Assembly: GCA_003990765.1 (NCBI GenBank)
Contig: RBNJ01000055.1
Location: forward strand, 1-45,980
From: Jimgerdemannia flammicorona
Lineage: Eukaryota
DNA length: 45,980 bases
Direction: 5' to 3'
Shown one piece after another: positions 1-23,623 of the stretch. The notes beneath the pieces are model-generated. The model was not told where the DNA came from. It saw nothing but the letters and a program-made list of their open reading frames with translations, and searched no databases. Both the position numbers and the translations under genes were made by a program. How positions within the stretch are numbered: position 1 is the stretch's first letter; every line of letters starts with the position of its first letter.

Positions 1-72
<72 letters not shown>
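1..72 (+). repeat. Poly-A run at window start, probably a sequencing/assembly artefact
   Basis: 72 consecutive A directly abutting the middle of a protease-coding region. Confidence 0.7.
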
Positions 73-77
<5 letters not shown>

Positions 78-2629
78 AAGGCAATTGACTGCCTAGACTG
101 GGATATTGAAGAGTACACAAGATGGTCTATGTTACAGCAGATAGTACATGAGCTACCCCCTTTGGCAAAATCCAAAAAGTCCCCAATTAAGATAGGAGGA
201 GCTACTATTCTAGTAGATGTGATTGTTACAAGTGCCACTAACTATGATATCCTTATTAACAACTAATGGCTTTACAAGATCAAGGCCATCATTGACCTCA
301 ATACCCAGAAGATGCAGATCAACTATAGAGGAAGAAAGGTATGAGTCTCTATCAATGTCTATAAAGGAGTTCTATCAGACAAAGAGAAAGGAGATAAAGA
401 GGACACAGAAGTCTTCATACACTTAGTGAATAAGAATAAGAATAAGACACCCAAGCTCACAGATGACCAGTGGTACAACAAGATCATTGATGGCTATGCC
501 CTATAAGGAAGATACCCCCATAGTACTAGGATGTACTGCTCTGAACACCTAAATAACTACTGGTCCTATATTAGTGAAGTCAGGAAAATCTGCCAACAGA
601 AGCATGAGCAAGGAGCTGCTGAAGTAAAAAGGAAAGCCAAAGAAGATGACCAGCCCCCAGAGCTTCAAGTTGACAGTGATGATAAGGAGGAATAAGAACC
701 AGACATCACCCTCAAGGTCAAGAAGTTTTACCCCAAAGCCAAGATCTCAGAATATAAGACTGAAGGAGCTATAGGAATAGACCTTGCCAGTATTCAAGAT
801 ACTATCCTTGAACTACAGACCACTACTCTACTTGGCACCAGAATTGGAGTCAAGTTGCTAGAGAATTATCAAGATCAGGAGCAGTCTGGCCAAAAGCAAA
901 ATCTCAGTTGAAGGAGGAGTAATTAACCCTGATTACACTGGCAAGATCTTTCTCATAGTCAGGAATCACAACTCCACCACCCCATTCAAAGTTAAGAAGC
1001 ATGACAGGATTGGTCAGATGCAGATCCATGAAATCAAGAAGCCTAAGATCATCAAAGCCATCAAACTCATCAAGACCAAGAGAGGAGAACAAGGCTTTAA
1101 ATCTACTGGAAAGGAGCCTATGCTGCCACTAAGATTACTGAACTTGAGCATAAGAAAGACAAGGACCAGAACAAACACACATATACTATTGGAGAAACTT
1201 TTCTCTAGAAGAACAACTTCTCAAGATTCTGCACCAGAACGAAGGAGTACTTGCTATAGACTTCAGAGATATCTACAATCAAGAACCCAAGTACTACCAT
1301 AAAGTTGACACTAGTGATACCAAGCCCATCTACTAGAAAGCCAGACCTATACCACCTGTCTACAGAGAATGGCTGCAAGCAGAACTCAAGAAAATGGAAG
1401 AAGCCAGAATTATCAAGCAAGCTATCAGTCTCTGGGCTTTATCTATTGTCCTTGCTCCAAAGAAAGGAAGCAAGTCTGGAGAGTTTGCCCCAAGACTCTA
1501 TATTGACTACAGGAAGCTCAATACAATCACTAAGAAGGATAGGCAGCCCTTACCAAATATTCAAGAAATTCTTACCACTCTTGAAAGTGAAGCCAAATAC
1601 TATCCTACTTCAGATCTGTTCTCAGGCTTCTATCAGATTGGTCTCACTCAAGATACCAGTGAGAAATCAGTCTTCATCACACCCGATGTCACCTATATCT
1701 ATCTGTAAATACCATTTGGAATATACAATGCCCTGGCAAGTTTTTAGCAAATGATGAACAGAGTCTTCAGCAATGAAATTGGAAAATGGCTCTTTGTCTA
1801 TATTAATGATGTGATCATCTTCAGCAACACTGTATAGGAACATGTCAACTATATATAGCTAGCTCTCAAGAAGCTCAAGAAGTATGGCCTCTACATTAAG
1901 CCCAAGAAGTGTAAGTTTACAGCTCAGGAAATCACCTATCTAGGATATCTTATCAATCAGACCAGAATCCACACAGACTCCATAAAGATTGAGGCTATTA
2001 CAGCCTATCCAAGACCCAGAACAACTACAGAAGTCTATGTCTTCCTTGGACTGGCCTCCTACTATAGAAGATTCATCAAAGAATACTTTAACATTGCAGC
2101 ACCTATCTATGAGCTACTGAAGAAAGAGATCAAATTCAAATAGACCAAGGAATGCCAAGAAACCTTCAATGAACTTAAGACCAGATTGACCCAAGCACCC
2201 ATCTTCAGAAGATCAGATTGGAATCTAGAGTTTATTCTGTAGACAGATGCAAGTGCTATAGGACTTGGAGCAGTCCTAGCTCAGAAGAAAAATGGATATG
2301 AATATGTTATCTCCTATATAAGCTGAGGTACCTATAGAGCAGAACAGAATTATGAGTCATACAAGCTTGAATGCTTAGCAGTAGTTTGGACAGTAGACAA
2401 GTTCCACTACTATCTAGCTGGGAAATACTTCACTATTCAAACAGACTATTCTGCTCTAGCCTGGCTATTCTACACTCTGAACTCTAAAGGAATATATACC
2501 AGATAGATCTAAAGGCTGCAAGAGTATGATTGTACTGTCAAGCACTGCCTAGGAAGAACCAATGCCAATACTGATGCACTCTCAAGGACACTTCAAAACA
2601 CTCCCATCAAGTCTATTCAACATGAATAA
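73..2629 (+). pseudogene. pol: Degenerate pol of element A (PR-Cys/His-dUTPase-RT-RNaseH), ending at TAA 2627-2629
   Basis: PIKIGGATILVDVIV, RGEQGFKSTG, YINDVII, TDASAIGLGAVLAQ, TDYSAL, NANTDALSR; many TGG>TAG/TGA and CAA>TAA stops. Confidence 0.9.
712..1110 (+). pseudogene. dut: dUTPase domain of element A (degenerate, with internal frameshift)
   Basis: KVKKFYPKAKISEYKTEGAIGIDLA, RSSLA, EGGVINPDYTGKI, DRIGQM, RGEQGFKSTG. Confidence 0.85.
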
Positions 2630-3818
2630 GGAGTTATTCTATAGATTAATCAGCTATCTTAGACAGTGGAAGATGCTCAACCACCTTGAACTTTGAACAA
2701 TCACCATTATCAACTAGACTTAGAAACAGTTTGAACTAGACAATACTATACTCAGAAAAGAAGGAAAGCTTATAATACCTGAATATAAGAAGTATCAAAT
2801 AATGAAGGAAGTATACAAACAAGGATACCTAGAAGGAACCAATATATATGATAAGGCAAGAAGAATTATATGATGGCCCAAGATGAAAGAAGACCTGTGC
2901 CAATTTGTCAAAGGGTATGATAAGTGCCAAAAACAGAAATAAGATCAGTAAGACCAGGCATCCAGGTCATTAAGAATTGAGCCTATCCCCTTCCACCATA
3001 TTACAATAGATATCATTATGCCACTATCAGTAATACTATTAGGAAACTATTATATTATAGTTATTGTAGACCTCTTTAACAAATAGATAGAAGCAGGAGT
3101 ATTATAAGAAGTCAATGCCCTCTCTATAGCTGACTTCCTGTACCAAGAAATCATCTACCACTACAAGATACCAAAGCAAATCACCACAGACCATGGTACA
3201 GAATTTATCAATAGATTCTATCAGATAATGTATCAGAAATACAGGATTCAGCACATCAAGACCACTGTGTACCACCCTCAAAGAAATGGACAGACAGAGA
3301 GAATCAACAAGACTCTCAAGAACATCCTGGTGAAGATCTCAGATATATATGAGAATTGGGATAACTACCTTCCAACTGTCCTCTCTATCTTATGAGATAT
3401 ATGGTCACAGAGTACACACTTTATCCCAAAAGAACTGCTCTTCAGAGAAGAAGATTCTGATGGAATCTCAGCCACAAATCTAGACCTAACTTGGAGACAG
3501 ATTGACTCAAAAATCTGGAGATTACACCAAATCAGGCAGAAGGCTGAAGATTACATCATTAAGTCACAAGCACTGATGAGAAAGAATATAGAAAAGAATT
3601 ACAAGATCCTAGAACCCATCCAAATTGGAGAAAAGGTCCTACTGTATCGAAATATAGTAGAAGCCTCATGGTTATAAAAACTGGAGCCTAAATAAGAAGA
3701 ACCCTTCTATGTGCAAAATATCAAGAGAACTACCTTCTAGCTTAAAAAACTCACAGGGACTATACTGCCTATTATAGTACACAGGAACAGACTCAAGAAG
3801 TACTATAAACCTATATAA
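2622..3818 (+). pseudogene. Integrase of element A as a separate ORF (399 codons, no net frameshift, several nonsense mutations)
   Basis: ATG at 2622 overlaps pol stop; HHCC-like region, TDHGTEF, HPQRNGQTERINKTLK, GPF/Y-like C-terminus. Confidence 0.85.
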
Positions 3819-4172: not shown

Positions 4173-4182
4173 AGGAGGAAGA
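4173..4182 (+). other. Polypurine tract of element A
   Basis: TATTCAGGAGGAAGA|TGTAATGG matches the element B junction TATTCAGGAGGAAGT|TGTGATGG. Confidence 0.8.
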
Positions 4183-4439
4183 TGTAATGGTGATCTCAGA
4201 ATGATGACATTAGTATAAGAGACAGCAATTTCTTGCAAGCCACCAGATCAGAGTATAAGAAGATCATATAGCATGACTCACTCAGGTTATAAGATGAGCA
4301 ATGATGACCAACTATGAGTCATTGGAACCACAATACAGATATCTCAAGGAATATAAAAGAAGGATCAAAGAACTGCAGTAGCAGCAACTCAACAAGACCC
4401 ACTAATCCTGAAATAGCTCAAAGACTTATTATAAACAAA

Positions 4440-5327
4440 ATGTCTGCTGCTCACCAAACCTCAAGATCAAGAAACCACTAAGGCCCCTCAGTCTAGAAAA
4501 GGATGTTCCAAGATATCCAAAGAGCTATAAGGACCTACACTACAAGGACTCCTAGTGTCAACCTGGGTACTAGTGACCCTTATCATTATATCCTCTATTA
4601 CTATGAGATGGAAACAAGAATCACCATTGCTACTGAATGCCCTCAGATGTGGTAAGAATACAAAATAGGAAATCTCCTCTGCTGGGAATTCTCTCAAGCC
4701 AGCCCTCAAGAGCTACAAGATGTCACTTCTATAGATATATGTGAAATAAGGACAGCTAAGAAGATTTATCAGATCTTCAGGCATGCATTATGGTTGATCC
4801 CCAACTTGGAGTATATTAGAGTCTCAGACTTTAGAGATCTGTCAGCCCATCATATCAATGCACTAGAAGTCATAGTAGTAATAGAGGTCCAGTCCACTAT
4901 CACCCTCAATAGTGATGAGATAGAAGAGTTTCTGTATCCCATCCTCCAGGATAATCCAGATCAGTTTCTGCAAGGATTGATCTCAGTATTCCTAGATCTA
5001 AGTATCTAGGTTAGACCTTTCCAAGACCCCACATTTATCCCTTATTTTGTGGAAGAGAATCTTATAGACTGGAGAGCTCCAGATCTCCTCACTCTCCCTG
5101 CTACCACTGAATGTGATGATGTCATCAGTAATGATATCATCCCATGCAACATATGCAAAATGTATGATAAAACATTCATAGACCTCATCTCCTTTAAGGA
5201 CAGCAACAAAGATAAAGCCCCCATGGTTCTGAACTTTCTGCTCTAAGATCTTGATTATACTGAGTTCTTCCAGCATCCTTTTTCCATAAAACAGCTATTA
5301 CTCTACTTTCATTCTGATCTTATGTGA
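4440..5327 (+). pseudogene. ~295-codon degenerate ORF inside putative LTR A (U3); homologous to accessory ORF of element B
   Basis: Single frame from ATG 4440 through ORF-track segments 4794-5009 and 5049-5246 to TGA 5325-5327; stops are transition-type; frame conserved in the inverted copy. Confidence 0.65.
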
Positions 5328-5679: not shown

Positions 5680-6804
5680 ATGGTTTGGTAGGCAACCTTC
5701 TGAGTCCACTTTCCACAATTATTACCCTCTCTACCTCAGGTTGGTTTGCTATATCTATTACAGGGCAGTGGAAGGGAGATAATAGTGCTTTTATTAGTGT
5801 CAGATTGGTGTCTTCTCCACTTTTTCATAGTTTCTGGTATCTTTGGCTATATCTAGAGTATATCTATTTTAGTGTGGTGCCTTCTTTCTTTTGCTGTCAC
5901 CAATAAGGTACTGTCTTCAGTATATCATGGGTTATATAGGGAGTCAGTCAACCTTAGGTGTCAAGTACTCAGTATAGGTTACCTGCAGGTCCTCAGTATC
6001 TGTGGTGGGGCCCTCTGGCTTTGGTGAGCTTCTCAGTAAGTATGGTTCTGGTATAGGTGACTGCTTTCAGGTGTTGTCAGAATGGGAGGGGAGATGGCCA
6101 TCACAGATAGGAGAAAGGGCAATAATGATGAACTAGTAGGGTGCCAGACTAGAGGTGGTCATCAAGACTGGGGCAAGTGCTGCTTTAGTGGGACCTTTTG
6201 ATTGGTGTAGAGCAGTTAGATAGTAGGTGTCACTCTCAGCTTCTTTTGGCAATTTGGCAGATTGGGCCCCAGTCATTGGGGGGGGTTGAGAGACTCAAGG
6301 CTACTCATTTCAGATGTCTTGGCTATACTCAACTGGAACTAGGAGCTGAAATGGCAATGTGATTGAGGCCTACAGGCTTGAGTAGTGGGGTATTGGAGGT
6401 CTCCTCCCATCTCATATGTAAGTCCTTTACTCATCTTGACTAGGAGAACCAGGCCCTACCCACTGTGATATACTTTGATAAGAGTTTTTCTTTACCTATC
6501 ATTCTCTTTGGGGTAATAGGGACCATTCTATTCAACTTGGGTATGGTTTATATATATATTGGGGTCTCAGGTATGTACTTTTGATCATTAGCATATGGCT
6601 GAGTTCTCCCTGGTGGTAGAGAGAGTATGGTATATAGAATGAGATATAGGCCAATATAGGCCCTACTGCATCTAGTATGGTTGAGCTGCTGGATAATAAC
6701 TAGCCTAGATTAATGGGGGGCAGTGCTTGATGGGTAGTGGGGGAGAGTTTTGGCCTATATAGTCTAGGTTCTCTTCCAATAAAAATCTGCAGGACATTGA
6801 GTCC

Positions 6805-7182: not shown

Positions 7183-8122
7183 ATAGGATGACACTATTAC
7201 TGATGATGTCATTACATTCAGTAGTAGCAGGAGCTCTCCAATCTATGATATTCTCTTCTACAAAATAAGGAATAAATATAGAGTCTTGAGGAGGTCTAAC
7301 CTAGATACTGGGGCCTTGGAATACTGAGAACAATTCTTATATGAATTGATCTGGATTGTCCTGGAGGATGAGATACCAGAACTCTTCTATTTTATCACTA
7401 TTGAGAGTAATAGTAGACTGGACTTCTGTGGCCACTATGGCCTCCAGTATATTGATACAGTGGGCTGATAGTTTCTTGAAGTCTGAGATCCTAGTATACT
7501 CTAAGTTAGGAATTAACTACAGTATATGTCTGAAGACCTGATGAATCTTCTTAGCTGTCCTTATTTCATATATATCTATGGAGATGATATCTTGAATCTC
7601 TTGGGGACTGGCCTGAGGGAACTCCCGGCAGAAGAGGTTTCCTATTTTATACTCCTGCTACATCTAGAGATATTCAGTAGCAATGATAATCCTTATTTCT
7701 ATTTTATAATGATAGAGAATATAATGATAAGGGTCACCAGTATTCAGGTTAAGACCAGGAGTCCTTCTTGTGTAGATCCTCATGACTCTTCTGATGTCTT
7801 AGAATATCCTTTTCTAGACTGAGGGGCCTTGGTAGTTCCTGAACCTTAAGGTTTGGTAAGTGGTAGGCATTTGTTTGTGGTAAATCTTTTGAACTATTTC
7901 TGTGAGCTTTTTTTAGATTGCTACTACTGTAGTTTCTTGATCCTTCTTTTATATTTCTCAAGATATTTGTCTTGTGGTCATAATGACTCATAGTTGGTCA
8001 TCATTACTCATCTTGTAGTCTGGATGAGTCATGCCATATGATCTTTTTATACTCTGATCTGATGGCTTGTAAGAAAAGGCTGTTTTCTGTAATAATATCA
8101 TTATTCTGAGATCATCATTATA
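7183..8122 (-). repeat. Inverted, diverged partial copy of LTR A (solo/5' LTR start) including the U3 ORF (7870 to ~7183)
   Basis: Reverse complement aligns with 4183-~5145; begins at the LTR-A first base; carries an 18-bp in-frame deletion. Confidence 0.9.
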
Positions 8123-8299: not shown

Positions 8300-9115
8300 A
8301 ATATAGGATGAAGACTATAGAATACAAGATAATAGTAATAATAACTTCACCTATAAGATAATAATAAACTACAAAATAATAATAATAGACTGAAAATAAT
8401 AATAGACTATAAGACAAAGATATTATAAGATAATAGAGTATGAGATAATAAATAGTAAGATAATAGACAGCAAGATAATAGATAGCAAGATGATAGATAG
8501 TGAGATAATAGATACCAAGATAATAGAAGAGCAACTAGATGATATAAAACTAATAAATGTATCTTATTAGATACTAAAATATAAGAGTTATTATAGGAAG
8601 CTAGAATATAGTAGGTTGTTCAAAAATGAGAAATCAGAATATAGTAGATCATTAGAATATAGTAAGTTATCAGAATACAGTGAGTTGTTAAAAGATAGGA
8701 AACTGGAATATAGTAGTTTGTCAGAAGAGAGAAAGTTGAAATATAGTAAGTTATTAAAAGGAGAAGTTAGAATATAGTAGATCATCAGAAGACAAAAAGC
8801 TGGAATATGATAGATTATCAGAATATAGTAGGTCATCAAAATATAGTAAAATGGAAATATAATAAGTCATGAAGTCAGAATATAGTAAGTTATCAGAAGA
8901 CAGAAAGCTGAAATATGATAGATTATTAGAATATAATGAGTTATTAAAATATAGTAAGATGGGAATATAATAAGTCATAAAGTCAGAATATAGTAAGTTA
9001 TCAGAAAACAGAAAGCCTGAATACAGTAGATATAGTAAGTCATCAGAGTATAGTAAGTCTTCAGAATATAGTAGATTTTCAGAATATAGTAGATTGTTGG
9101 AAAATAGTAGATCTT
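8300..9115. repeat. Degenerate AT-rich minisatellites (15-bp TAATAGATAGTAAGA-like, then 18-bp GAATATAGTAAGTTATCA-like units)
   Basis: Visible periodicity; explains the YYL- and LLYS-rich spurious ORFs. Confidence 0.8.
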
Positions 9116-9218
9116 TAGTTAGTGGTATAGAGACCTATTAATATAGAGTATAGTGGTAGTATCAGAGAGAGAGATAGCATCATTTAGTAAGTTATAAAGA
9201 TATTTATCAACTAGATAT

Positions 9219-9702
9219 TGTGACAGTTGATCCAAATTAGTAACATGAAACAGGGAAATTAGACATTTGATCACAGTATCTGAACCCAATTCCCGATATA
9301 GTATAGCCTTATAAATAGCAGTCATATTTCACAAGTGTAGAAACTTTAGCAACTGTAGAAATTCTACAGATGTAAAATATTTTACAATTGTAAAGATCTC
9401 AACAGATATAGAGGATTTACACTTATAGAAATTGACTCACAGGAAATGTAGTTATAATTTAGCCACCTTATAGCTAGCAAAACTGTATAAATAACCCAGT
9501 ATCTTCAAGTAAATAAACCTCAGATCGAAATAGTTCAAAAGCAAAGAGATAGCAAAGGAACTAGTAAGCCTGCAGGCAGATACACTTCGAACTCACCACC
9601 CTCCCCTGCAACTTCAAGAGACTCTGCAAGAGTCAGAACAGTCAAGTTTTTAAGATACAGAAATCTGACATACTTTCAAGAGTAAGTGTCTACTACATTA
9701 CA
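9219..9702 (+). repeat. 5' LTR of element B (484 bp)
   Basis: TGTGACAG...CATTACA; ~93% identical to 15353-15835 by manual comparison. Confidence 0.97.
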
Positions 9703-9705
9703 ACT

Positions 9706-9722
9706 TGGTGCCCATTGGCTGG
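9706..9722 (+). other. Candidate primer-binding site TGGTGCCCATTGGCTGG
   Basis: TGG 3 nt after the LTR end (complement of tRNA CCA); cognate tRNA not identified. Confidence 0.6.
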
Positions 9723-11740
9723 TGATTCAAGACGAATCCCTCTTTATTGATGATTTAGAGCAGTATGCCACTGTAAGGACCCTGACAGCAGCACAGCAAG
9801 TAGCCCTCATGCCCTTCAGCCTACAAGGCCCTGCCAGAGCAGCATTCACAGCCGCAACCCATATAGGAAATGATGCCGATGCTATACTGACAGCATAGAA
9901 GACCTGGCTCCAAAATACATATTACACAGACGAGATCAAGCAAGCCCTAAAGGATCAGCTCAATACAACATGCCAAGGAATGAGCAAGAATCCAAATACA
10001 TTCTATACTAGAATTCGATATCAGATAATCCTTGCAGATTATACTGCTGCAATCCGAGATCAAGTAGCTGAAGCAACCTTCATGAAAGGAGTCCATCCAG
10101 AAATAGCCATGGCCATCTGCTCATTACCAGTAATTCTGGATCTGCCACAGAAGGTCACCTATGCTCAGCGATACTGGATAGCCAGACACCCACAAGACCA
10201 TATGATGGAGAGAGTTACAGGAGTCAGAATTGAGGCACCTAAGCCAACCAGCATTATCTCCACCACAATGATCAATCGAAACACACCTCAGCCCAAAGCT
10301 ACAGAGCAGCAGAAGAACAGCGACCCTATGGAGGAACTTGCAAAAAGGTTTGCTGAAATGACTGCCCACCTGGGAGACATGGTAAAAGAAATTCAAGGAA
10401 GAGACCACCGCTCTGTCCAGAAGTTTGCCGCCACCTCAGACAAGAAGAAAGGTACCTGCTATACTTGTGGAGAAGAAGGCCACTACTCCTATGAATGTAT
10501 GAGCGAAACCAAGCACAAGGCTCAACTAAGCAATGCCACATGAAACAAGGAGCAGACCAATACAATTACCTTCAAGGAGATTGGAGATTCTGAAGAAGAA
10601 GAATGGGAGGCCTATCCTGCCCAGACCACTAAGAAGGATGCTCGCATAGAACCCTACAAGAGACCACCAGGAAGACCCAAGAACCTGGTGGAAAAGCAGA
10701 TGGAAACTGCCACAGAAAGCCAAGCCAAAGAGATGGACCAAGATACAGAGCTGGAGCAAGCAGTTCAAGATATCATCCGAGGAACCACTCCAGCCAGTGA
10801 AGGAGAAAAAGAAAAGAAGCTTCGCAAGACCAAGACCTTCAAGTATGATATCTTCAAGGACCTCAGTCAACAAAAAGTCAATGCAACCTTTGGACAGCTC
10901 GCAGAAATCCCAACATTCAGACAGCAAATGAGATTTGGACTTGCCGAAACAACAAAGGAACAAGGATGGAAGATAACTGAGGCCAATAATGCTCAAGAGG
11001 ACTCAGGAGAAGAAAGTGAGGACAATCACAAAACTTCTGCCTATGCAACATGCCAAATTGAAGATAGAATCTTTGAAGCCATCATTGATACAGGAGCAGG
11101 AGGATGTCTCCTCAGCAAGAAGGCAGCAGACTGCCTAGGTTGGGATGTAGAAGAAGCAACTAAGCTGGTATTCGTCACAGCTGATGGCACAAGAGCCACA
11201 CCCCTGAGAAAGATCCGAGATGTTCCCATCAAGATTGGAGGAGCAACCATCCCAATAGATGTAATTGTAACCAACACCACCAACTATGACATCCTCATTG
11301 GCAATCAATGGCTTCACAAAGCCAAGGCAGTAATTGATCTCAACACCCAGAAGATGCAGATCACCTACCAGGGACAGAAGATACGAATTCCCATCAATGT
11401 CAACAAAGGAGTCCTGCCCGACATAGAGGAAGAAGAGAGTGAGCAAGAGGAAGCTTATATGGTGACTACTCCAAAGAAGAAGAAAGTCGGATAGATGAGT
11501 GAAGAAGAATGGTGCAAGAAGATCGCAGAAGGCTATGCACCACAAGGAGTCTGTCCTCACAGGATCAAGATGTACTGCATGGAGCATGTCAATGACTGCT
11601 ACCAGTGCACCATCAGAATCAGGAAGATCCACCAGGAAAGAAGGCAGAAAGCTCTCGAAAAACAGACCAAAGAAGAAGAGAAGGAGGAAGATGATGAACC
11701 ACCAGCCCTCCTGGAGAATAGTGATGATGAAGAAGAAATC

Positions 11741-12155
11741 AAGATCAAGATTTGAAAGATCCACCCTGATGCAGTCTTGCCAGAATACAAGTCAGAAAAT
11801 GCAGCAGGAATGGACATTGCTACAGTAGAAGAGACCATACTGGAACCCCAGACAACCACCCTACTTGCAACTGGATTGGAGATGACCATCCCAAAGGATC
11901 ATGTTGGGATTCTCAAGACAAGAAGCAGCCTGGCTAGAAGTGAAATTACAATTGAAGGAGGAGTCATCGATTCAGACTACATTGGAGAAATTCTACTCAT
12001 CGCTAGAAACCACAATCTTACAATCCCATTTCCAGTCAAGAAGAAGGACCAATTGGTGCAAATGTTGATCTTTCCGATCCTACAACCAAAGATCATAGAA
12101 GTTAAGAAGCTGGGGGAAATGAGAAGAGGAAAGAAAGGATTTGGATCCACAGGAA
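11741..12155 (+). pseudogene. dut: Trimeric dUTPase domain between protease and RT in element B
   Basis: All five motifs: AGMDIA, RSSLA, GVIDSDYIGEI, DQLVQML, RGKKGFGSTG. Confidence 0.95.
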
Positions 12156-13666
12156 GAAGAGTATTCGCCAATACCAAGATCACCGAACTCGAGCATAAGA
12201 AGGAGGAAAACATGAGCAAGCACAGCTACACTATCAGAAATGAATTTCTACTCAAAAAAGAACTCAAGAAAATACTCCACGAATTCGAGGATGTCCTTAC
12301 CACAGATTTCAAGAATATCAAAGGAAAGACCCCACACTACTATCACGAAGTAGATACTGGAGACACTGAACCAATTTATCAGAAGGCAAGACCCATCCCA
12401 CCAGCCTACCGAGAATGGCTCAGAGAAGAAATCAAGCAGATGGAAGAAGCTGGCATCATCAAAGAAGCCAGCAGCCCCTGGTTCTCATCTGTTGTACTGG
12501 CCCTGAAAAAAGGTAGCAAGCCTGGAGAATTCGCCCCAAGACTCTGTGTCGACTACAGAAAACTCAACATGGTTACTAAGAAGGATCGCCAACCACTGCC
12601 CCTCATCAATGACATCCTCATAATACTGGGAGATGAAGCACAGTACTACAGCACCTTAGACTTATACTCAGGATTTCACCAAATCGGACTCACAGACACA
12701 GCAAGCAAAAAGTCAGCTTTCATCACTCCAGATGGAACCTATGTCTACCTGTGAATGCCATTCGGAATGTGCAATACACCAGCAAGCTTCCAGCGAATAA
12801 TGAACAAAATCTTCTGCTATGATATGGGAAGATGAATGATGGTCTATGTCAACGATGTAATCATCTACAGCAAGACACCCAAGGAACATCTGCAGCACAT
12901 ACAGCAGATAATGGAGAGACTAAGACAATATGGTCTTTACACAAACCCAAGAAGTGCAAGTTTGCAGAAATTGAGATCTCCTACCTTGGCCATATTATCA
13001 ATCGAGATGGAACACACATGGACCCCCTCAAGATACAAGCAGTGGCAGCATACCCAAGACCCACCACTGTTACAGAAGCCCAAGCCTTCATGGGACTCAC
13101 CTCCTATTATCACAGATTTATTAGAGGATTCTCTAATATTGCGGGACCAATCTATGAACTTAACAAGAAGGATACCAAGTTCCAGTGGACTGGCAAACAA
13201 CAAAAAGCATTCGACGAACTCAAGGTCAGACTGACCCAGGCACCCATCCTCAGAAGACCTGACTGGACCCAAGAATTCATCCTACAGACTGATGCAAGCG
13301 CACAAGGACTAGGAGCAGTCCTAGCTCAAAAGAAAGATAAAGTGGAGTATGTCATTGCATACCTCAGCCGCGGAACCCAAGGAGCTGAAAAAGAATATAA
13401 ATCCTATAAGTTAGAATGCCTCGCAGTCATCTGGGCTGTAGAAAAGTTCCACTACTACTTGGCTGGAAGGCACTTCACCATCCAAACAGACCACTCAGCT
13501 CTCACCTGGTTACTGACAACTGGACAACCCAAAGGAATCTATGCCAGATGGATAATGAAGTTGCAAGCTTATGATGTAACCATTGTACATCACTCTGGAA
13601 GAACCAATGCTAATACCGATGCCCTCTCGCAGACACCCCGAAGGACCCCACCCCAACAAAATTACC

Positions 13667-14869
13667 ATGAATAAGGAGCTCTACTATGGAATTATTACAT
13701 ATCTAGGACAGTGAAAGATGCCCCAACATCTGGAACAATGGACACAAATGATTATCAACAGAATATGGAAACAATTCGAAACTGACAGAGAAATACTGAA
13801 GAAAGGAAAACTACTAGTCATACCAGAACACAAGAAGGAGCAAGCAATGAAATCAGTACATGAACTCGGCCACCTAAGAGGAACAAATACATATGATAAA
13901 GCAAAAAGAACAATGTGGTGGCCAGGAATGGAGGAAGACATCAGACAATTTGTCAAAACCTGTGATAAGTATCAGAAACAGAAACAAGACCAATGAAATC
14001 AAGCCCTAAGATTAGCACACATAGAACCAGTACCCTTTGCCCACATAGCAATGGATATAATTGGCCCACTACCCCTGATATTGACTGGCAACTGATATAT
14101 CATTGTCATTGTGGATCTATTCACAAAATGGATAAAGGCAGGACCCCTCAAGGAAGCTAATGCACAGTCAATTGCCGATTTCTTCCACAAAGAAATCATC
14201 TGCCAATTCAAGACCCCAATGCAAGTAACCATGGATAGAGGAACAGAATTTGTGAACCAGTTCTTTGAGATTCTCTACAAAAAATACAAGATCCAACATA
14301 TTCAGACTACCACCTATCACCCTCAAGGAAATAGACAAGCAGAAAGGACAAACAAGACTCTCAAGAATGTTATTGCCAAGATCTGTGATAACTATGAAAA
14401 CTGGGATCACTATCTGCCAATAGCATTATCTGCTCTCCGAGATATCTGATCACAAAGTACCCACTTCACTCCTCGAGAAATGCTGTTCGGAGAAGAATAT
14501 TCTCAGGGAACCCTATCATCCAACGGAGATGCTGTATGGAAATATGTGGACATGGAAATATGGAGACTACACCAAATCAGGAAGAAGGCTGAGGATTACA
14601 TAACTAAGGCGCAGACACTACAATAGAGAAATGCGGAAAAGACCCACAAACCCTTAGAGATTATCAAGATAGGAGACAAAGTCCTGGTATATCAGAATAT
14701 GGTTGAAGCTTCATGGTCACGAAAACTGGAGCCCAAGTGGGAAGGACCTTACCTTGTGCAAGATATAAAAGGAACCACCTTTTGGCTATGAAAACCCTCA
14801 GGCACAATCATCCCCACTACCATCCACCAAAACAGACTCAAGAAATACCATGACCAGCCAACAAAGTAA
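13667..14869 (+). pseudogene. Integrase of element B as a separate ORF (401 codons; no chromodomain)
   Basis: HELGH...TCDKYQ zinc-binding region, AMDIIGPLP, MDRGTEF, AERTNKTLK, WEGPY; ATG 13667 overlaps pol TAA 13672-13674. Confidence 0.92.
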
Positions 14870-15311
14870 TACAGCTGCCCTCAAGATCACTAGTGCTGCC
14901 CAATGAGCCATAGAGAGACAGTGGTATTCCACCAAACCACCAATAATGGAGGAATCCTTTGATAGTATACAGAGTATAGTCCAGACCCACCTGTCACGAA
15001 TTTTGCACTTCAAGGCCTACCGGATACAAACCGAGTTCCAGGAGTACTTCAAGCTAGGATAACTACTGAATTCAAATTCGAGGATAGGAAAAGAAGACTG
15101 GATCAAAGAATGTCAGCTCTCCTACACTCAGATCACGATCGCCAAGAGAGTGCACAAATTATTCAAAGATGATGAACCAGCTTTAGCTCATCTCCGTGAA
15201 GTAATTCCGGGGGATTTCGGACAAATCAGAAGACAACATTGGAAGAACGTAATGGCGCAGATCATACAGTACAAGGAGATACAAATTGTAGAAGCCTGGG
15301 AGTTCGAGTGA
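14850..15311 (+). pseudogene. Accessory 3' ORF of element B (153 codons, two C>T nonsense codons), unknown helical protein
   Basis: MTSQQSNTAALK...QEYFKLG*LLNSNSRIGKEDWIKECQLSYTQITIAKRVHKLFKDDEPALAHLREVIPGDFGQIRRQHW...WEFE*; fills the IN-PPT interval; start overlaps IN end. Confidence 0.75.
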
Positions 15312-15342
15312 ATAGGATACTTCAGAGATGAATCACCTATTC

Positions 15343-15351
15343 AGGAGGAAG
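15343..15351 (+). other. Polypurine tract of element B
   Basis: AGGAGGAAG just before the 3' LTR. Confidence 0.85.
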
Positions 15352-15352
15352 T

Positions 15353-15835
15353 TGTGATGGTTGATCCGAATTAGTAACATGAAACAGGGGAATAGACATT
15401 TGATTGCGGTACCTGAACCCAATTCCCGATATAGTATAGTCTTATAAATAGCAGTCATATTTCACAAGTATAGAAACTTTAGCAATCATAGAAATTCTAC
15501 AGATGTAAAATATTTTATAATTATAAAGATCTCAACAGATGTAGAGGATTTACACTTGTAGAAATTGACTCACAGGAAACATAGTCATAATTTAGCCACC
15601 TTATAGCTAGCAAAACTGTATAAATAACCCAGTATCTTCGAGTGAATAAACCTCAGATCGAAATAGTTCAAAAGCAAAGAGATAGTAAAGGAACTAGTAA
15701 GCCTGCGGGCAGATACACTTCGAACTCACCACCCTCTCCTGCAACTTCAAGAGACTCTGCAAGAGTCAGAACAGTCAAGTTTTCAAGATACAGAAATCTG
15801 ATGTACTTTCAAGAGTAAGCATCCGCTACATTACA
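15353..15835 (+). repeat. 3' LTR of element B (483 bp)
   Basis: TGTGATGG...CATTACA followed by ATAT. Confidence 0.97.
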
Positions 15836-15839
15836 ATAT

Positions 15840-16525
15840 GTAATAAAATAAATAGAATAGTCATAAGACTTCAGTTATAGAGACATTCACTGACCAGATA
15901 ATAAAATATAATAAAATAAATAAAATAGTCACAAGGCTTTAGTTATAGAGATATTCACTGACCAGATAATAAAATAAAATAAAATAAAATAAATACATAA
16001 AATGATCATAAGGCTTCAATCATAGAGATATTCATCAATTAGATAATAAAATAAAATAAAATAAATAGAATAGTTATAAGGCTTCAGTTATAGAGACATT
16101 TACCAACTAGATAATAAAATAAAATAAAATAAATAGAATAGTTATAAGACTTTAATTATAGAGACATTCACTAACTAGATAATAAAATAAAATAAAATAA
16201 ATATGTAGAATAGTCATAAGGCTTCAGTTATAGAGATATTCACTAACCAGATAATAAAATAAAATAAAATAAATAGAATAGTCATAAGGCTTCAATTATA
16301 GAGACATTCACTGATTAGATAATAAAATAAAATAAATAGACTAGTTATAAGGCTTTAGTTATAGAAATATTTGCTAACTAAATAATAAAACAAAATAAAA
16401 TAAATATATTAAATAGTTATAAGACTTTAATTACAGAGATATTCACCAACCAGATAATAAAATAAAATAAATAGAATAGTTATAAGACTTTAGTCAGAGA
16501 GATATTCACCAACTAGATAATAAAT
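15840..16525. repeat. ~60-bp tandem minisatellite (~11 copies) with variable (TAAAA)n
   Basis: AATAAAATAAATAGAATAGTCATAAGGCTTCAGTTATAGAGACATTCACTGACCAGAT units; a partial unit at 9190-9218 shows element B inserted in the array's first unit. Confidence 0.9.
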
Positions 16526-18651
16526 AGAAATATACTTACTTTAGTTTTTGAGTACATCTATCTTCTGTCTAGTTATTATAGATAATATAGTAATGAATAG
16601 ATATGATTTTGAAATATACAATACTTATTTTATAATATAATATAGATATCAATAATTAACTCATCAAGGATTACAAAAGTATAATCAATAATACTAACTG
16701 ACTTACTATAGTCCTCAAATAGCTATCTTTGTATACTTATCCAGAGCATTAGGTCAAAATTCTTATAGATGGAGATAATGTATTATTAAGAAGCTAAATA
16801 CTCTCAAAACTCACATCTTCAACTCTGACAAGTAGTGTATTATTGTTGAGTTTTTTTTTCAATACAGAATATACCATAATTTCAAGACCTATCTGATCTC
16901 TTCTAATTGTAGGGCAGACAATTACTAGCTATCTGTATCATTAATGGAGATCTGCTTTATAATAAGCTATAGATGATCAAAGGTTGGGTTTTACTACTTC
17001 TAAATACTTACTATATCAATAGTATCATATTAAAACTCTATAGTAATAGTGAAGCAACTCTAGGTTCTATCTAAAACATTACACTACTTAGTGATAAACA
17101 ACTTAGCAGATTTTTGGATAGAAAAGAATTTATCTATCTATCTGTTACTCAATCTTTATAAAAAAACCTATACTCTTAGTAAAAAATATAAAAAAGAAAT
17201 ATAGTGTCTTCATGATCAGACTCTTCTACAGGCTCTCTAATAGGGCAAAGAGAGCAGCAATAGTGAGATATACTGCTCTAATCTCTTTGTGATATGTGAG
17301 TTATATTATCTCTAATATCAAAATACTAACTAAAGACAATTATATTAAAAGCTTGGTCAGTAGTATATATGGAGACTTGTTAATATAGATTTGAGGAGAG
17401 GATTTACTTGTGTATATATATAAGATAAGTAGAGAGAGAGAATGGGAGAGAGATAGTGAAATTGAGTATAGTAGATATAAATAAGAGTATAAGAGTAATA
17501 TGATTATAGAAGATATCTGACAACTCCATTTAATTCTATTCACTCAGTTCATTCTCACTTTTCTTTATCTTTTTATTCTATTCTATACTCATACTCTACT
17601 CCTCTTTCTCAAAAAAGAAAAAAAAACTCCACCTACTGACTGCTCAGAATTGTGATAATATTCTTCTTTAAGTATTAGCAGACCTATTAGAAAAACATAG
17701 TTATGTCATTGAGAATTGAGTCTGATGATAATAACTAAGTAAAGAATAGCAATAATATAAGTAGCTTCTAGTTACTATAAAAATATTTCCTGAATGATCT
17801 CTTAAGATATAAAGATACTAAATAAAATTCTAAGAAGTATTTATAGGGTAATTTCAGTAGTTCATTATTACAAAGTTGCTATAAAGTATAGTGATAGTTC
17901 TGGAGAAGGGGGAGAAGATTACTTGAGTTTGTCATTATCTTTCAAGAGCTTAGACAGACTCAGAAATCTCATTTGGAGAGTAATGACTTCACTCAGAACT
18001 ACTATTTGAAAATTATAAATCTGAGTACTATTCTGCTTAATGTTATCTATATTACTATTTAATAAAAATCTACATCTTATTCAATATAAGTAAAATACAA
18101 ATTTGAACCAGAATATATATTTATATTATGAAATTATTATTATACTATATTTTGAAGAGAAAAATCTATATACTGTAATTTATATCCCAAAACCTATATA
18201 TTACAATTTATACTGCAATTTGTATACTTATTGAAAGCAAAGCTATATATTAAATTGAAATCAAAGCTATATAATAATAAAAAAAGAAGTAGTATGCTGA
18301 TATTAAATTAAAGAAGCTATTAATGTTTTGACTGAAAAACACAAAAGTTATATATCTTTTTCACATCTAAGTATTTAGTATATTTTCAACATCACTCACT
18401 GATCTAGAATCAGATCTCTTACTATTTATATCTTTAGTAGTATATATAGTATATACTTTCTTTTGAAGTTAATCTAGTTCTAATTTAATCTAACTATATT
18501 TTTCCAATATTTTAATCTATGTTCTGTAATTTTTTCCATCTATCTTTTCATTTAACTTTAAGTCAATCTGTGATGTAAGATATTTTAACTGATAAAAAAA
18601 AAGATAAAGATCTAATAAGCTTGAATATCTAGAGAGATGTCATTTTATAGA

Positions 18652-18951
18652 ATATAGTTATGAATGCAATTCAAACTTCAGCAAAGTGGCTGAGAGCCAC
18701 TTAACATTATGTGGAACAATTATGCAATTTCCCCTTGGCAGACTTAGTTTAGCTCATTTCATGCAGTTTCTTGTCCCTTTCTATGCCAAAGATAACTTAG
18801 CTAGTGGTGTTTTAAAAATATGCCAACCATTAATGTGAGTTAGTAACAATGTAATCAGTCCAGTGACTGAGTATTCATTGCATCTCAGCTAGTCAGATAT
18901 ATACTATGCCAAGTTGCAATTAGTTGCTAGTATTTACAATCAGTTCACGTA
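18652..18951 (+). repeat. Split direct repeat A1
   Basis: ATATAGTTATGAATGCAATTCAAAC... repeated at 23127. Confidence 0.93.
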
Positions 18952-18962
18952 CCATATTCACA

Positions 18963-20283
18963 ATGCCCCCAATCCACACTCAGTCTCATAGTCCTTTGGA
19001 ACCAGCTATAGCCCCAAGACTGGTTGCCCCCCTAGCCCCCTTACATGAACCTCACCCCTTCCCCATTCCCAATCTATCTGGCCTATGTGCTTGTTGCAAA
19101 GAACAGCTAGTTGCACTGTGTCACGAACATTATCTGCCAGTCGAAGGTCAAAAAGCCACACTAGTTATGCATCTCAACTCGCACCATCCAAGTCCCAACC
19201 CTCTACCTCAGCTGATTATTGGAGAGCAAGCTAAAGATGCTCTTATTGAATGCTTAATCTCCACTTTAGTTGGGTGCCTTGCAACACATCCATCCATCAT
19301 ACTGACGGGCCCCAACTTAATTACTCCACCAGTATCAGGGCTACTGGTGGGCTTGTCACAGGCAATTCCTCTACCAGCCACTACTCCTCCCTCAGCCATA
19401 GCCCCCTTCATGCTGCCACCTCCCATGACAAGGTTGATGTCGCAATCACTGCCAAATTTGCAAAGTAGTGAGTCTTCCTCATCTCTCATTTCAGATGCCG
19501 TACTTCGATGGAATTGGGTACCACCCGACTTGCTGGCATCACTAGATGTGGGCGACTATCAGATTCTATCTGAATTGACTGGCAGCACTCTTATTTCATA
19601 ATCAAGCAGCTGCAAAAAAGTAGATATATACATGCCCGACCACGACCTAGATCTACCACTGTAGCTTGAAGCCATCTTTAATATCCGAGGTGCTCTACTG
19701 GCTCTGGGTACCACCTGATCGACCTCACATACATCCTATGCTCCTCAACTTCTTGCCCATGCAATCTTTATCATTAAAGCGATAAATGATCGTTATGACT
19801 AGGTGGCACTTCAATGCTTTGACTGTCAAGTTCGTATACTCAAGGTCTCTTTCTCTGACTTGGACATTGGCAATCCAGACATAGTTCGCTGTACATTCGA
19901 GACAATCATTGGCCAACCTTCCTCAGCACCCTTAGCATACCAATGTCACTCTACATTCTCCTATGCTAGATCTCATACAGTGGGAAGTTCATCAACTGCC
20001 CACCCGGCTGGCAGCCCAAAACCAGTCTCATCCACCAACCTCTTGTGCTTTCGATGTGGGGTGTGGGGACATACTGTCAGCTCCTGCACCCTAAACCCCA
20101 CTCCAGCATCCTACTTTCCCATTCCAGTCAGACGATCCTATCTACCCAGATGGTGCAGCAAGCTTAGTCTGTCATAACTTTAATGGCTCTAGTTGCTCCT
20201 ATCAAAACTGCAGTCGAGCATACATATGCCTCTTCTGCTATGGACCTCACACAGCCCTGGCTTGCTCTGCTCGCCATGGCTAA
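18963..20283 (+). pseudogene. Ngaro ORF1 (gag-like): N-terminal SAP-like motif, CCHC knuckle, C-terminal CCCH-type zinc fingers
   Basis: LSGLCACCKEQLVALCHEHYLPVEGQKATLVMHL; CFRCGVWGHTVSSC; CHNFNGSSCSYQNCSRAYICLFCYGPHTALAC; stops and a frameshift. Confidence 0.8.
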
Positions 20284-22015
20284 TCTCTCGATTCCCCCCA
20301 CTTCTAGTCACCCAACCACCCTGTACCATATTAAGGAGTGGAAAAGGGTACTGCATTTGCATCCAAACCAATCACTCATTCAGTACCACCTAACAGATCT
20401 CTATCACGGTTATTAGCACGGAAATCACTCTCACCCTGAGCTTCACATCAACCTCATATCCAACAATCTTACCTCTGCTTACCAGTATCAAGAAGTTCTC
20501 TCTACCAATATTCTCACCGAGCTAGCTGTGGGTCGCTATCTTGGCCCATTTTCATCTCTCTCCTCCATACCACCAGAATTCCGCCCCTTTCACAATGCAC
20601 CCCTTGGTACCATTCCTAAGAAGCACTTGTCCAAATTTCGTACTATACAACATCTATCCTTTCCCTACAGGAGTTCAGTCAATGACAGAATCAATCCTAA
20701 GGAGTTCTCAATCTAGTACCAGTTCATTCAAGCCATTATTCTCCTTCTCCTCTCAGTTGGCTCTACTGCGTTCTTCTGGAAGGCATGGGCTGATGCCTTC
20801 TGCACCATCCCAGTACACTGCTCCAATTGGGCTATGCAGAGTATCTGCTGGCTTGGTCTTTTCTTCCTCGACATGTTCCTCTCCTTTGGTCTTTGCTCCG
20901 CTTCCTTTATCTTCACATCTCTCATGGACCTCTTTACCTGGATCTGTATTCAACTGTATGATCTTCCTAACTTGGGCCATTTCGTTGATGACTTTATCTA
21001 CGTCACACCTCTGTCTAGTGCATTCTCCTCCTATAATCAATTTCATGCTACTGTATCTCGATTTGGCCTCCCACTCAAACCCTCCAAAGATATTCCTCCT
21101 ACTCCAACTATAGAGTATGTTGGCTTCATTCTCGATACTCCAACAATGATGATTAGTCTCCCAATAGAGAAACGCACATGCATTCTCACCTTACTAGCAT
21201 CATGGCTTACACTGGCTCAGCAGACTCAATCATACCATCTATGTCTGCATTCACACCATAAAGCTCAATCACTCTCGGGCCATCTTATACACATTGTTCA
21301 AATACTTCCAGATGGGAAGGTGTTTTGTGATGGCATTATTCACTTCGCTTCCTCTTGAAAACTGCCCTATATAGGGCAGCATTTTCCACCTCCTTGACTA
21401 GCCACCGACTTACAGTGGTGGTATGATATTCTACACTCATGGCCAGGTCATCACCTGCTCTGCCATTCTGAGTGGCTCAATTGTGGTCCGTTTATAGATG
21501 CATCTGGGACACTTGGTGCCAGCAGCCTGCTGGGCCAACACTGGTGGAGTACTCATTGGGCTCTCTCCTTCTTAGATCTGAATGGCTATGATATATTCTG
21601 GAAAGTAATATTTGCCATTTGGGTCCCATTGGTGCTCTGGGGCCCCTTGTTTCATTCTCAATGTATTATTCTCTGGTGTGATAGCCAGCCCTGTGTTGAA
21701 TCGTTGACCAGTGGTCAGGCATGCCATCATCCTCTTGTCAATGACTTACTTTGTCGTATCATTCTCTTACATCTCAAAATTGGATTCGAAATTCAAGCTC
21801 GTTACATCTCTTCAGCATCTAACCCTGTGGACCCCTTATCTTGCCATATACTTCCTCCACATCCCCAGGACCCATTGCCTATATTAATTACATCTCTCTT
21901 TGGCTTCGCCATCAATTCGACACCTGCCTCTACCAATGCACCCACACTCGAATGGGTAACTTCCAGTCAGGTACCAATTCTCTACACTGATTTCTCAACT
22001 CCTGCAATATCGTAG
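20276..22015 (+). pseudogene. Ngaro ORF2: reverse transcriptase + RNase H
   Basis: PLGTIPKK..KFRTIQHLSFP..SVND, LSFGLCSA, HFVDDF, IEYVGF, FIDASG, WCDSQPCV, NPVDPLS. Confidence 0.92.
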
Positions 22016-22938
22016 AGGCCACTGCTTTCCCTCTTTAAGATGAATTACTCAGTTATTGGGCTCTTTGGCTTGTCCAAGATAGCAAGCCCTACTCCACCAT
22101 TAAGAACTACTTCTATGATCTCACAGCCTATCAGGTCGCTCACTGGCATGGTCCTCCACTCCAGCACCTTTCTCTACCTCTCTTCAACACCATTATGAAG
22201 TCTATTCAGACTCACCCACTATCTTCCAGTTCACTCAACTAGCTTCCTATTATGTGCCAACATCTCTGGTCTATCTGTCTCTCTCTCCACATAGACACTC
22301 CTTTTAGTGCTACTATTTGGGCAGCAGTGTGCTCTGCTTTTTATGGCTTAATGTGTGTTGGTGAATTTACTACTCGAGATGGCTCTGTATTCAATCCGAA
22401 TTGGCAAATTTGTCATCGCCATCTTCATCGCCAACAGGATGACACCCTTTCTCGACCATTCTGGGCTCTACATCTTCCCTGAACAAAAACAGGCAGAGCA
22501 GGTGACATCTTCCTTGGCTTCTCTGGTGTCTTCGATTGCCCATGCACTACAATTGACAACATGGTCCATATTCTCCCAGCACAACCTCATGACCCTGCCT
22601 TCTGCCTTGGCCCGGGCCAACCACTTTCTCGATCTACATTCATTAAAGCGATTCGATCTCCACTCATGGGCACCTCCCTAGCTATTGGTATTTATGGTCA
22701 CTCCTTTCGAATTGGTGGTACCACACTTCTGGCAGCTGGGGGCTATCCTGATCATGTCATTCAACTTGCTGATCAATGGAAATCTACCATATTTCTCCAC
22801 TACATTCAACACCTCAACCACATTCTCCCCAAAACCATGGCAACACTAGCAGGACTCCCTCTACCCAATCTTCAGCAGGCCATGGGTTTGGCCAGTAATG
22901 GCCGAATTTCACCCATAAGTGGTTTATGGTACCATTAG
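21870..22938 (+). pseudogene. Ngaro ORF3: tyrosine recombinase (start approximate)
   Basis: STIKNY, FYGLM(C/R)VGEF, LP*TKT, GHSFRIGGTT, QWKSTIFLHYI. Confidence 0.93.
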
Positions 22939-22971
22939 GAGCCTAAAACCACTTCTCAGGCCCACAGTTTT

Positions 22972-23623
22972 GGCCCCCTTCACTAATGCAAATGGTGGGC
23001 CTTGGAGGCATATGCTTTCATATAGCCAAACCTACTCCGCTTCATCCCCTATACACATTCTACATTTTATGCTTCATAATCCCCCCTTTTCTACTTCATT
23101 GAATTGGTCACTCAATAGACACTTTGATATAGTTATGAATGCAATTCAAACTTCAGCAAAGTGGCTGAGAGCCGCTTAACATTATGCAGAACAATCATGT
23201 AATTTCCCCTTGGCAGACTTAGTTTAACTCATTTCATGCAGTTTCTTGTCCCTTTCTATGCCAAAGATAACTTAGCTAGTGGTGTTTTAAAAATATGCCA
23301 ACCATTAATGCGAGTTAGTAACAATGTAATCAGTCCAGTGACTGAGTATTTATCACATCTCAGCTAATCAGGCATATACTATGCCAAGTTGCAATTAGTT
23401 ACTAGTATTTATAATCAGTTTGCATAACCCTCTCACCCATCCCCTTTTAGTAGTATATAATAAAAGAAGGCCCTCTTCGCTAATATGAATGGTGGGCCTT
23501 GGAGGCATATACTTCCATATAGCCAAACCTACCTCACTTCATCTCCTATATATATTCTACATTTTACGCTTCATAATCCCCCCTTTTCTACTTCGTTGAA
23601 TTAGTTACTCGATAGACACTTTG
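22972..23623 (+). repeat. Ngaro 3' repeat block B1-A2-(42-bp spacer)-B2
   Basis: B units of 155 bp flank the second A copy. Confidence 0.92.

Follow-up and report, generated by a model that had tools for sequence, protein, structure and literature searches.

A degenerate third open reading frame downstream of integrase in a dUTPase-bearing Ty3/gypsy element of Jimgerdemannia flammicorona

ORF3 and its protein family

The contig RBNJ01000055.1 of Jimgerdemannia flammicorona (GenBank assembly GCA_003990765.1) was analysed from position 1 to 45,980 of the forward strand, a stretch of 45,980 nucleotides (nt) referred to here as the window. It contains a decayed long terminal repeat (LTR) retrotransposon, element B, in which a third open reading frame (ORF), ORF3, lies between the end of the integrase (IN) frame and the polypurine tract (PPT). 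An initial annotation, made from the letters of the window alone, had proposed this frame as an uncharacterised gene. The features of the ORF3 locus are:

14850..15311, + strand: ORF3 pseudogene, ATG and 152 codons followed by TGA; new small-protein family, subfamily I
14850..14868, + strand: 19-nt overlap of the ORF3 start (+1 frame) with the integrase end
14904..14906, + strand: in-frame stop TGA, ORF3 codon 19
15060..15062, + strand: in-frame stop TAA, ORF3 codon 71
15343..15351, + strand: polypurine tract AGGAGGAAG of element B, abutting the 3′ LTR

The gag-pol/IN frame terminates at the TAA at 14866-14868 with the integrase end ...HQNRLKKYHDQPTK, which is usual for Ty3/gypsy elements. The ORF3 ATG therefore lies in the +1 frame and overlaps the last IN codons by 19 nt, in agreement with the initial annotation. 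It is located a few codons past the conserved integrase C-terminal HxNRLKxY motif, and its context, ACCATG with A at -3, is the same in the window and in an intact homologue on the metagenome contig L001. The window ORF3 aligns to this homologue without a gap across all 462 nt and thus carries no frameshift; exactly two internal in-frame stops interrupt its 153 codons. It had been claimed that 154 codons exactly fill the interval between IN and the PPT. The frame, the two stops and the lack of a frameshift all stand, but the fit is only nearly right, as 31 nt separate the ORF3 stop from the purine run; the 3′ LTR then starts with TGTGATGG at 15353. The frame was also said to be invisible in the ORF track, whereas the stop-to-stop list does contain it, as three pieces (14769-14906, 14907-15062 and 15063-15311).

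Both internal stops had been described as one C>T change from a sense codon. For codon 71 this is borne out, since L001 has CAA and the TAA is thus one C>T step from the homologous codon; the column holds Q in 8 of 11 homologues and E in the other 3. Codon 19 is R in all 10 homologues that cover the position and AGA in L001, so that a TGA arising by C>T from CGA is plausible only. With two stops in 153 codons, ORF3 has decayed at the same rate as the remainder of element B.

A search of 5.8 billion proteins gave 10 homologues among 14 candidates, with E values from 2.8e-63 to 1.3e-27 and 64-77% identity. Among the members of the homologue clusters are five full-length forms of 153 amino acids (aa), namely P0004, P0014, P0017, P0021 and P0022, and the alignment of 12 rows has no internal gaps, its short rows being trimmed at the ends only. 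The DNA context of a homologue is seen in L001 (6479 nt), the sole confirmed locus of 333 pattern matches. Its gene order matches that of the window: IN, overlapping ATG, ORF3, PPT and LTR. Here ORF3 occupies 5795-6256 and overlaps the IN end by 44 nt (5795-5838), and the PPT and LTR start are as in the window. No antisense ORF of at least 80 aa is found opposite ORF3 in L001.

Between the window and L001 the ORF3 differences at codon positions 1, 2 and 3 number 27, 17 and 71. The Nei-Gojobori method gives proportions of nonsynonymous and synonymous differences of 0.139 (pN) and 0.711 (pS), respectively, and an omega of ~0.07; in the two other frames omega is 1.04 and 1.96. The protein identity of ORF3 (73.9%) falls between that of the gag-to-reverse transcriptase region (66.1%) and that of IN (79.4%). 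These comparisons indicate that ORF3 is under strong purifying selection within subfamily I. The proposal of a genuine third ORF is thereby upheld, in that the frame is conserved, the low omega is confined to this frame and homologues occur in related elements.

A profile search of 1.84 billion representatives returned six proteins at E <= 0.001. One of these, P0025 (a 455-aa repeat protein, E 1e-06), was discounted as a repeat artefact, having matched via six repeated short stretches. Two more of the six, P0026 (165 aa) and P0027 (154 aa), served as seeds for a second, word-indexed profile search, in which 23 of 966 candidates reached E <= 0.1. The family consists of proteins of ~150-170 aa in three subfamilies:

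Subfamily I: window type, 153 aa, end ...EAWEFE
Subfamily II: 164-169 aa, EGEYPPFIDFG, end ...ELDEWDL
Subfamily III: 154-168 aa

Subfamilies I and II match in hhalign with a probability of 97.4% (E 1.6e-11, 108 columns). Identity between subfamilies is 18-25%, and an aligned initiator Met is common to all three. The window ORF3 scores 159.9 bits against the family-wide profile, with conservation of the core motif around IA.R.Y.LF ... AL.H. In one protein, P0067 (455 aa), a subfamily II ORF3 is fused to the rve core and C-terminal region of an integrase; Ty3/gypsy integrases are therefore followed by members of subfamily II as well. Instead of the usual IN end, P0067 has residues that read as a shifted frame, which suggests, from the protein alone, that this copy bears an indel. 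Further clusters, those of P0032, P0037, P0046, P0054 and P0069, are encoded on contigs of 5.9-8.2 kb. When longer or fused forms of the family were sought, no candidate out of 8000 reached E <= 0.1, although this is weak evidence because the P0067 fusion exists. No cellular homologue was found at E <= 0.001 among the 1.84 billion representatives, and scans of viral contigs with the subfamily I and II alignments gave no relatives. In the ESM Atlas, P0004 retrieved unrelated hypothetical clusters only (0.94-0.95; shared features below 172) and P0046 gave no usable match. Full-text literature searches brought up no description of the ORF3 protein; the supplement of one survey of fungal Gypsy elements (PMC2864245) might list such an ORF.

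The protein appears soluble. No transmembrane segment was found in three members (maximum 19-residue Kyte-Doolittle mean 0.39-0.82, grand average of hydropathy ~-0.55; no dedicated signal-peptide program was run), which agrees with the earlier statement that ORF3 is not env. Pfam gave nothing for the window ORF3, P0026, P0027 and P0004 save one weak TBK1_ULD match (E 0.018). There is no Chromo match across 34 members at E <= 10, nor any Pfam match in P0001 or P0004 at E <= 1, so the exclusion of a chromodomain also stands; the likeness to DUF3102 or DUF1016-N that had been suggested by eye does not, as neither family is matched by any of these members. The best hit of a sequence profile search of the PDB (E 0.073) was rejected as noise.

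An AlphaFold model built from 34 sequences of all subfamilies has eight helices, with a predicted local distance difference test score (pLDDT) of 74.8 and a predicted template-modelling score of 0.68; in the blocks covering residues 61-110 pLDDT is 85-90. The helical character anticipated in the initial annotation is thus reproduced. When the 783 chains ranked highest by Foldseek were scored again, Z reached 3.6 at most, and a Foldseek-independent fold search (48,161 chains) gave a best Z of 4.8, for the Rubisco factor Raf1; according to the tool's guidance, a Z below 8, or below ~13 for helical proteins, may mean a common arrangement only. ParB-superfamily DNA-binding domains make up 8 of the 22 top fold rows (KorB, Spo0J, SopB twice, ParB, VirB, KorB again and P1 ParB), at Z 3.5-4.6, root-mean-square deviation (rmsd) 3.0-5.2 Å, 79-93 aligned residues and 9-15% sequence identity. 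We regard this enrichment among weak matches to a predicted model as a lead. The isoelectric point (pI) is 4.7-6.8 in 12 of the 13 members for which it was computed and 8.76 in the other, and the net charge of the core is near 0. The last 25 residues contain W, F or L; their net charge is -10 to -11 in five subfamily II members and -2 to -4 in subfamilies I and III. The nucleic-acid binding proposed earlier is accordingly kept as a lead only, with the ParB/KorB-type fold matches on one side and the low pI on the other.

The segment 14850-15311 is thus almost certainly the pseudogenised form of a genuine accessory gene, ORF3, carried by a dUTPase-bearing, chromodomain-less Ty3/gypsy clade. The intact gene would encode a soluble, all-helical product of ~153 aa belonging to a small, fast-diverging family of at least three subfamilies and an LTR-borne variant (described below), without named relatives; the window copy died with its element via transitions.

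Host element B and the related element A

The features of element B outside the ORF3 locus are:

9686..14868, + strand: gag-protease (PR)-dUTPase-reverse transcriptase (RT)-ribonuclease H (RH)-IN frame, degenerate (Pfam, translation)
11774..12154, + strand: dUTPase domain in the protease-RT interval (PF00692, E 2.3e-24; residues 697-823 of the translation from 9686)
13820..14868, + strand: integrase, comprising H2C2 zinc-binding domain, rve core and C-terminal region (PF17921, E 4.2e-15; PF00665, E 9.6e-12)
9219..9702, + strand: 5′ LTR, TG...CA (repeat search; boundaries from LTR alignment)
9705-9718: primer-binding-site-like TTGGTGCCCATTGG after the 5′ LTR
15353..15835, + strand: 3′ LTR, TG...CA
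9215-9218 and 15836-15839: ATAT, candidate target-site duplication flanking element B

The Pfam domains of element B follow the order zinc knuckle, aspartyl protease, dUTPase, RVT_1, Integrase_H2C2 and rve, and its integrase has no Pfam match to a chromodomain. Element B is a Ty3/gypsy (Metaviridae) LTR retrotransposon bearing a dUTPase between PR and RT. In L001 the gag-PR-dUTPase-RT-RH-IN frame is nearly intact, with RNase H found by Pfam and the dUTPase at E 2.7e-28. The linkage of ORF3 to dUTPase-Gypsy elements suggested in the initial annotation therefore holds in both cases for which there is DNA.

Element B is dead. Its gag-pol has 20 internal stops in 1727 codons and an out-of-frame stretch in RT/RH, and relative to L001 ~117 nt (L001 574-689) are deleted at 9742/9743, with loss of the gag start (L001 634). 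The element family is present at 80% likeness in two public runs (DNA or unknown type; word shares 0.10 and 0.07), while the listing of runs contained none of RNA type. The missing ~117 nt occur in contigs of two public runs as loose ends at 9742. The summed depth of these non-RNA run contigs on the element drops in bins 14964-15405, and no splice-indicating joints were seen in the contigs of the two runs, which are not RNA runs. GTAAGT, found where the 5′ LTR ends, was considered as a splice donor and rejected, being conserved neither in the 3′ LTR nor in L001.

The two LTRs of element B differ by 32 transitions, no transversions and two gap columns in 485 columns, and 21 of the 32 transitions are in a CpA context. 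This pattern resembles that of repeat-induced point mutation (RIP), and we describe it as RIP-like on the basis of the LTR alignment. One-kb windows nearby have 20-28% GC, which is compatible with a RIP-like process. According to PMC12210899, RIP has so far been found in ascomycetes only, and rust fungi lack RIP-like signatures. Taken by itself, the pattern would point to a fungal and probably ascomycete host.

The polypurine tract is conserved across element B, L001 and the related element A described below. The U3 region of L001 contains tandem repeats of an 18-nt unit (with AGATCT), present 4.5 times at 6399-6479 and reaching the contig end; degenerate copies of the ACAGATGTAGAG motif lie in both LTRs of element B (9331-9414 and 15499-15564). 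Such repeats could serve as enhancers or protein-binding sites. AT-rich tandem arrays are found on both flanks of element B (8400-9130 and 15837-16532), with periods of 15 nt and ~108 nt before the 5′ LTR and a 68-nt unit repeated ~10 times directly after the 3′ LTR. Element B appears to have inserted into satellite-like DNA.

A second element at the start of the window, element A, carries a family member in a different place:

72..3818, + strand: pol of element A, related to element B and decayed
4173..4182, + strand: polypurine tract of element A, AGGAGGAAGA
4183 to at least 5145, + strand: LTR of element A, start TGTAATGG
4440..5009, + strand: degenerate ORF3-family member with three internal stops, inside the LTR of element A
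7301..7870, - strand: the LTR-borne ORF a second time, degenerate, on an inverted copy of the LTR

The pol of element A is 67.7% identical at the nucleotide level to 11114-14851 of element B, and the similarity ends at the IN end. An inverted copy of this repeat (8120-7183) is 78% identical to 4185-5145; it begins at exactly the base corresponding to 4183 and has no PPT ahead of it, as expected for an LTR boundary. The family-wide profile (A7) matches the 4440-5009 frame with an independent E value (i-E) of 1e-07 and 20.7 bits (profile positions 8-134 at 4500-4880), and the inverted copy with an i-E of 3.1e-04 at 7651-7442. The match is significant with the family-wide profile only: a profile of subfamily I alone gives an i-E of 0.013, and hhalign a P of 0.003. 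The two LTR-borne copies differ at 39, 32 and 61 sites by codon position in bins 4425-5024, compared with 19, 19 and 23 in the flanking LTR bins. In the element A lineage the family member thus lies after the PPT, in U3. The family members of elements A and B share only ~18-20% protein identity and occupy different positions.

No ORF3 remnant above shuffled controls was detected in element A between the IN stop and the PPT (3819-4165, 347 nt). The identity of this interval to element B is 44% (145/327), within the 37-49% range of 20 shuffles, and alignment is confined to the final ~45 nt ahead of the PPT.

Possible function and competing readings

The ORF3 proteins form a new family, and the class to which they belong, that of additional ORFs in LTR retrotransposons, is a known one; the relocation to U3 in a sister lineage is unusual. 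Extra genes besides env are rare in LTR retrotransposons and most have no assigned role. The fungal Gypsy survey reports a dUTPase between PR and RT in PosPlaTy3-5 and an "add. ORF" to which it assigns no function (PMC2864245). Among the dUTPase-bearing elements of bdelloid rotifers, the ORF3s described in PMC5408684 are env-like, of the GDSL-lipase (esterase/lipase) type or DEDDy exonucleases. The window element shares with these additional-ORF elements the extra gene downstream of pol, the dUTPase in pol and a modular gene content, the related elements A and B carrying different 3′ modules within one window. Relative to the rotifer ORF3s as so described, the window ORF3 differs in having no env-like, GDSL or DEDDy Pfam domain and no transmembrane segment.

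ORF3 can also be compared with viral and cellular systems. Retroviruses carry accessory and regulatory genes 3′ of pol at the PPT or U3, such as nef of human immunodeficiency virus (HIV), sag in U3 of mouse mammary tumour virus and tas/bel1 of spumaviruses. ORF3 is likewise a small non-structural 3′ gene, placed before the PPT in element B and L001 or inside the LTR in element A, and its acidic tail is compatible with an activation domain. It differs from the retroviral genes in that no viral protein similarity was found in BFVD at E <= 0.001 and in that the host is fungus-like, not an animal. Residues ~36-149 of the model superpose on the helix-turn-helix (HTH) domains of ParB, KorB and SopB more often than on other folds; yet ORF3 lacks the N-terminal CTPase domain of ParB, has an acidic pI and finds no sequence support in Pfam or the PDB. 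We therefore speak of a predicted resemblance to ParB/KorB and not of membership.

We can only infer the function of the ORF3 protein as a whole. Our tentative proposal is that ORF3 may act as a separately translated, trans-acting regulator or adaptor for the element. Synthesis of the protein would begin at a conserved ATG of its own, in the +1 frame; such a separate product is favoured over a fusion to IN because of the aligned Met in three subfamilies and the ACCATG context. Translation could occur by coupling to pol termination (termination-reinitiation) or from a subgenomic RNA; coupling is plausible with an ORF3 start that precedes the pol stop by 16-41 nt. PMC2699510 documents coupled termination/reinitiation in a fungal hypovirus. 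We note that a UGGGA-containing stretch lies ~105 nt upstream of the ORF3 ATG (window 14737-14745, L001 ~5682-5690). It resembles the rRNA-complementary reinitiation motif of caliciviruses; it also coincides with the W-E codons of the integrase PKWEGPY motif, and protein conservation explains it as well. As to the product itself, the conserved helical core (residues ~40-115), weakly ParB/KorB HTH-like, might bind nucleic acid, for example the U3 repeats, and the variable, acidic and aromatic C-terminal tail might behave like an acidic activation domain and bring in a host factor.

Several observations weigh against this proposal. The overlap with IN differs in length between the window (19 nt) and L001 (44 nt), and no shared reinitiation signal was seen in the two loci. 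The acidic-to-neutral pI is unusual for a DNA-binding protein, and in subfamily I the acidity of the tail is mild. Across the 34 members at E <= 10, Pfam gives scattered sub-threshold matches to seven families, most frequently TBK1_ULD (7 of 34 members, best E 0.016), with HTH_Tnp_Mu_2 in 3 of 34 (best E 0.031). The AlphaFold model is built on a shallow alignment, and an earlier one from 12 close sequences had reached a pLDDT of 49.6 only. With the later model Foldseek returned nothing at E <= 0.001 from either the PDB or the viral proteins of BFVD, and all fold matches have Z below 5.

ORF3 might instead be an integrase cofactor or targeting factor that replaces the chromodomain and bridges IN or the pre-integration complex to chromatin or a host protein. 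It sits in the slot of the chromodomain of chromoviruses, directly after the IN C-terminal region, and neither the window IN nor that of L001 matches a chromodomain; unlike a chromodomain, ORF3 has a reading frame and an ATG of its own, is all-helical in the model and has no Pfam Chromo match. ORF3 begins before IN has ended in the window, in L001 and, as judged from P0067, in subfamily II, and an acidic tail on a core of near-zero charge would suit a protein-protein adaptor. The HIV-integrase-binding domain of LEDGF is among the weak fold rows (Z 3.3, rmsd 8.2 Å), but hundreds of rows share that Z. In element A the family member is found within the LTR and at a distance from IN, so the linkage of the family to IN is not obligatory. 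We regard a cofactor role as unlikely. A closer tie to IN, in which programmed +1 frameshifting within the overlap adds ORF3 to integrase as a C-terminal extension, would account for the overlapping +1 frame, which extends ahead of the ATG without a stop over 27 codons in the window (from 14769) and 13 in L001, and for the fusion in P0067. The junction in P0067 suggests an indel in that copy, however, the initiator Met is aligned in three subfamilies at 18-25% identity, and no slippery or pause motif common to the window and L001 overlaps was seen. Since the element A member is located after the PPT, it cannot be fused to IN. Such an extension is very improbable.

A role in counter-defence against host silencing or restriction (RNA interference, methylation or a RIP-type process), similar to that of Vif, Vpx or Nef-type proteins, would fit the divergence of ORF3. 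Divergence between lineages is far more rapid in the protein than in pol (~18-20% protein identity against 67.7% nucleotide identity in pol), the ORF3 subfamilies are 18-25% identical and ORF3 has no detected cellular homologue at the E value and database size given above; the CpA context of most LTR transitions indicates that the host mutates its elements. Selection on subfamily I is, however, purifying (omega ~0.07) and not diversifying, and the module difference between elements A and B could stem from recombination rather than from an arms race. We consider this reading unlikely as well. On a last reading, the segment would be open by chance, or would be a cis-acting RNA or DNA region that is conserved but non-coding; the broken window copy is a point in favour of this. 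The excess of third-position differences and the low omega in one frame only argue against it, as do the persistence of intact 153-aa frames at 64-80% identity and the homology detectable across subfamilies at 18-25% identity. The codon-position pattern and the hhalign match of subfamilies I and II indicate that this reading is for practical purposes refuted.

Returning to the proposed regulator or adaptor, its most far-reaching form is doubtful. ORF3 would then be a retrovirus-like trans-acting accessory gene of a fungal-type Ty3/gypsy clade, with a fold absent from the PDB; it would encode a regulator directed at DNA or chromatin, the acidic tail being the effector, be expressed via pol termination coupling and have moved across the PPT into U3 in one lineage. 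If so, "complex" retrotransposons exist outside animals. The family combines strong purifying selection with the lack of a named relative or recognisable fold, and its slot is the position of the chromovirus targeting domain and, in the sister element, that of retroviral accessory genes in U3. Should ORF3 regulate transcription, integration or silencing, it would offer a tractable example of a retroelement gaining retrovirus-like complexity. A family profile would allow the gene to be recognised in fungal genomes and soil metagenomes.

Other features of the window

An Rfam scan of the window gave no match. A tandem duplication at 33231-40719 has a period of ~3.3 kb at 92% identity and contains internal repeats of ~940 nt at 94-97%; it has no Rfam match and no long clean ORF. 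A repeat-bounded element at 18652-23420 is delimited by 294-nt direct repeats (18652-18945 and 23127-23420) that are 94.9% identical. Its frame at 22483-22935 gives a weak tyrosine-recombinase match (Pfam Phage_integrase, E 0.0048, below the curated cut-off), and the whole is possibly a DIRS/Ngaro/Crypton-like element.

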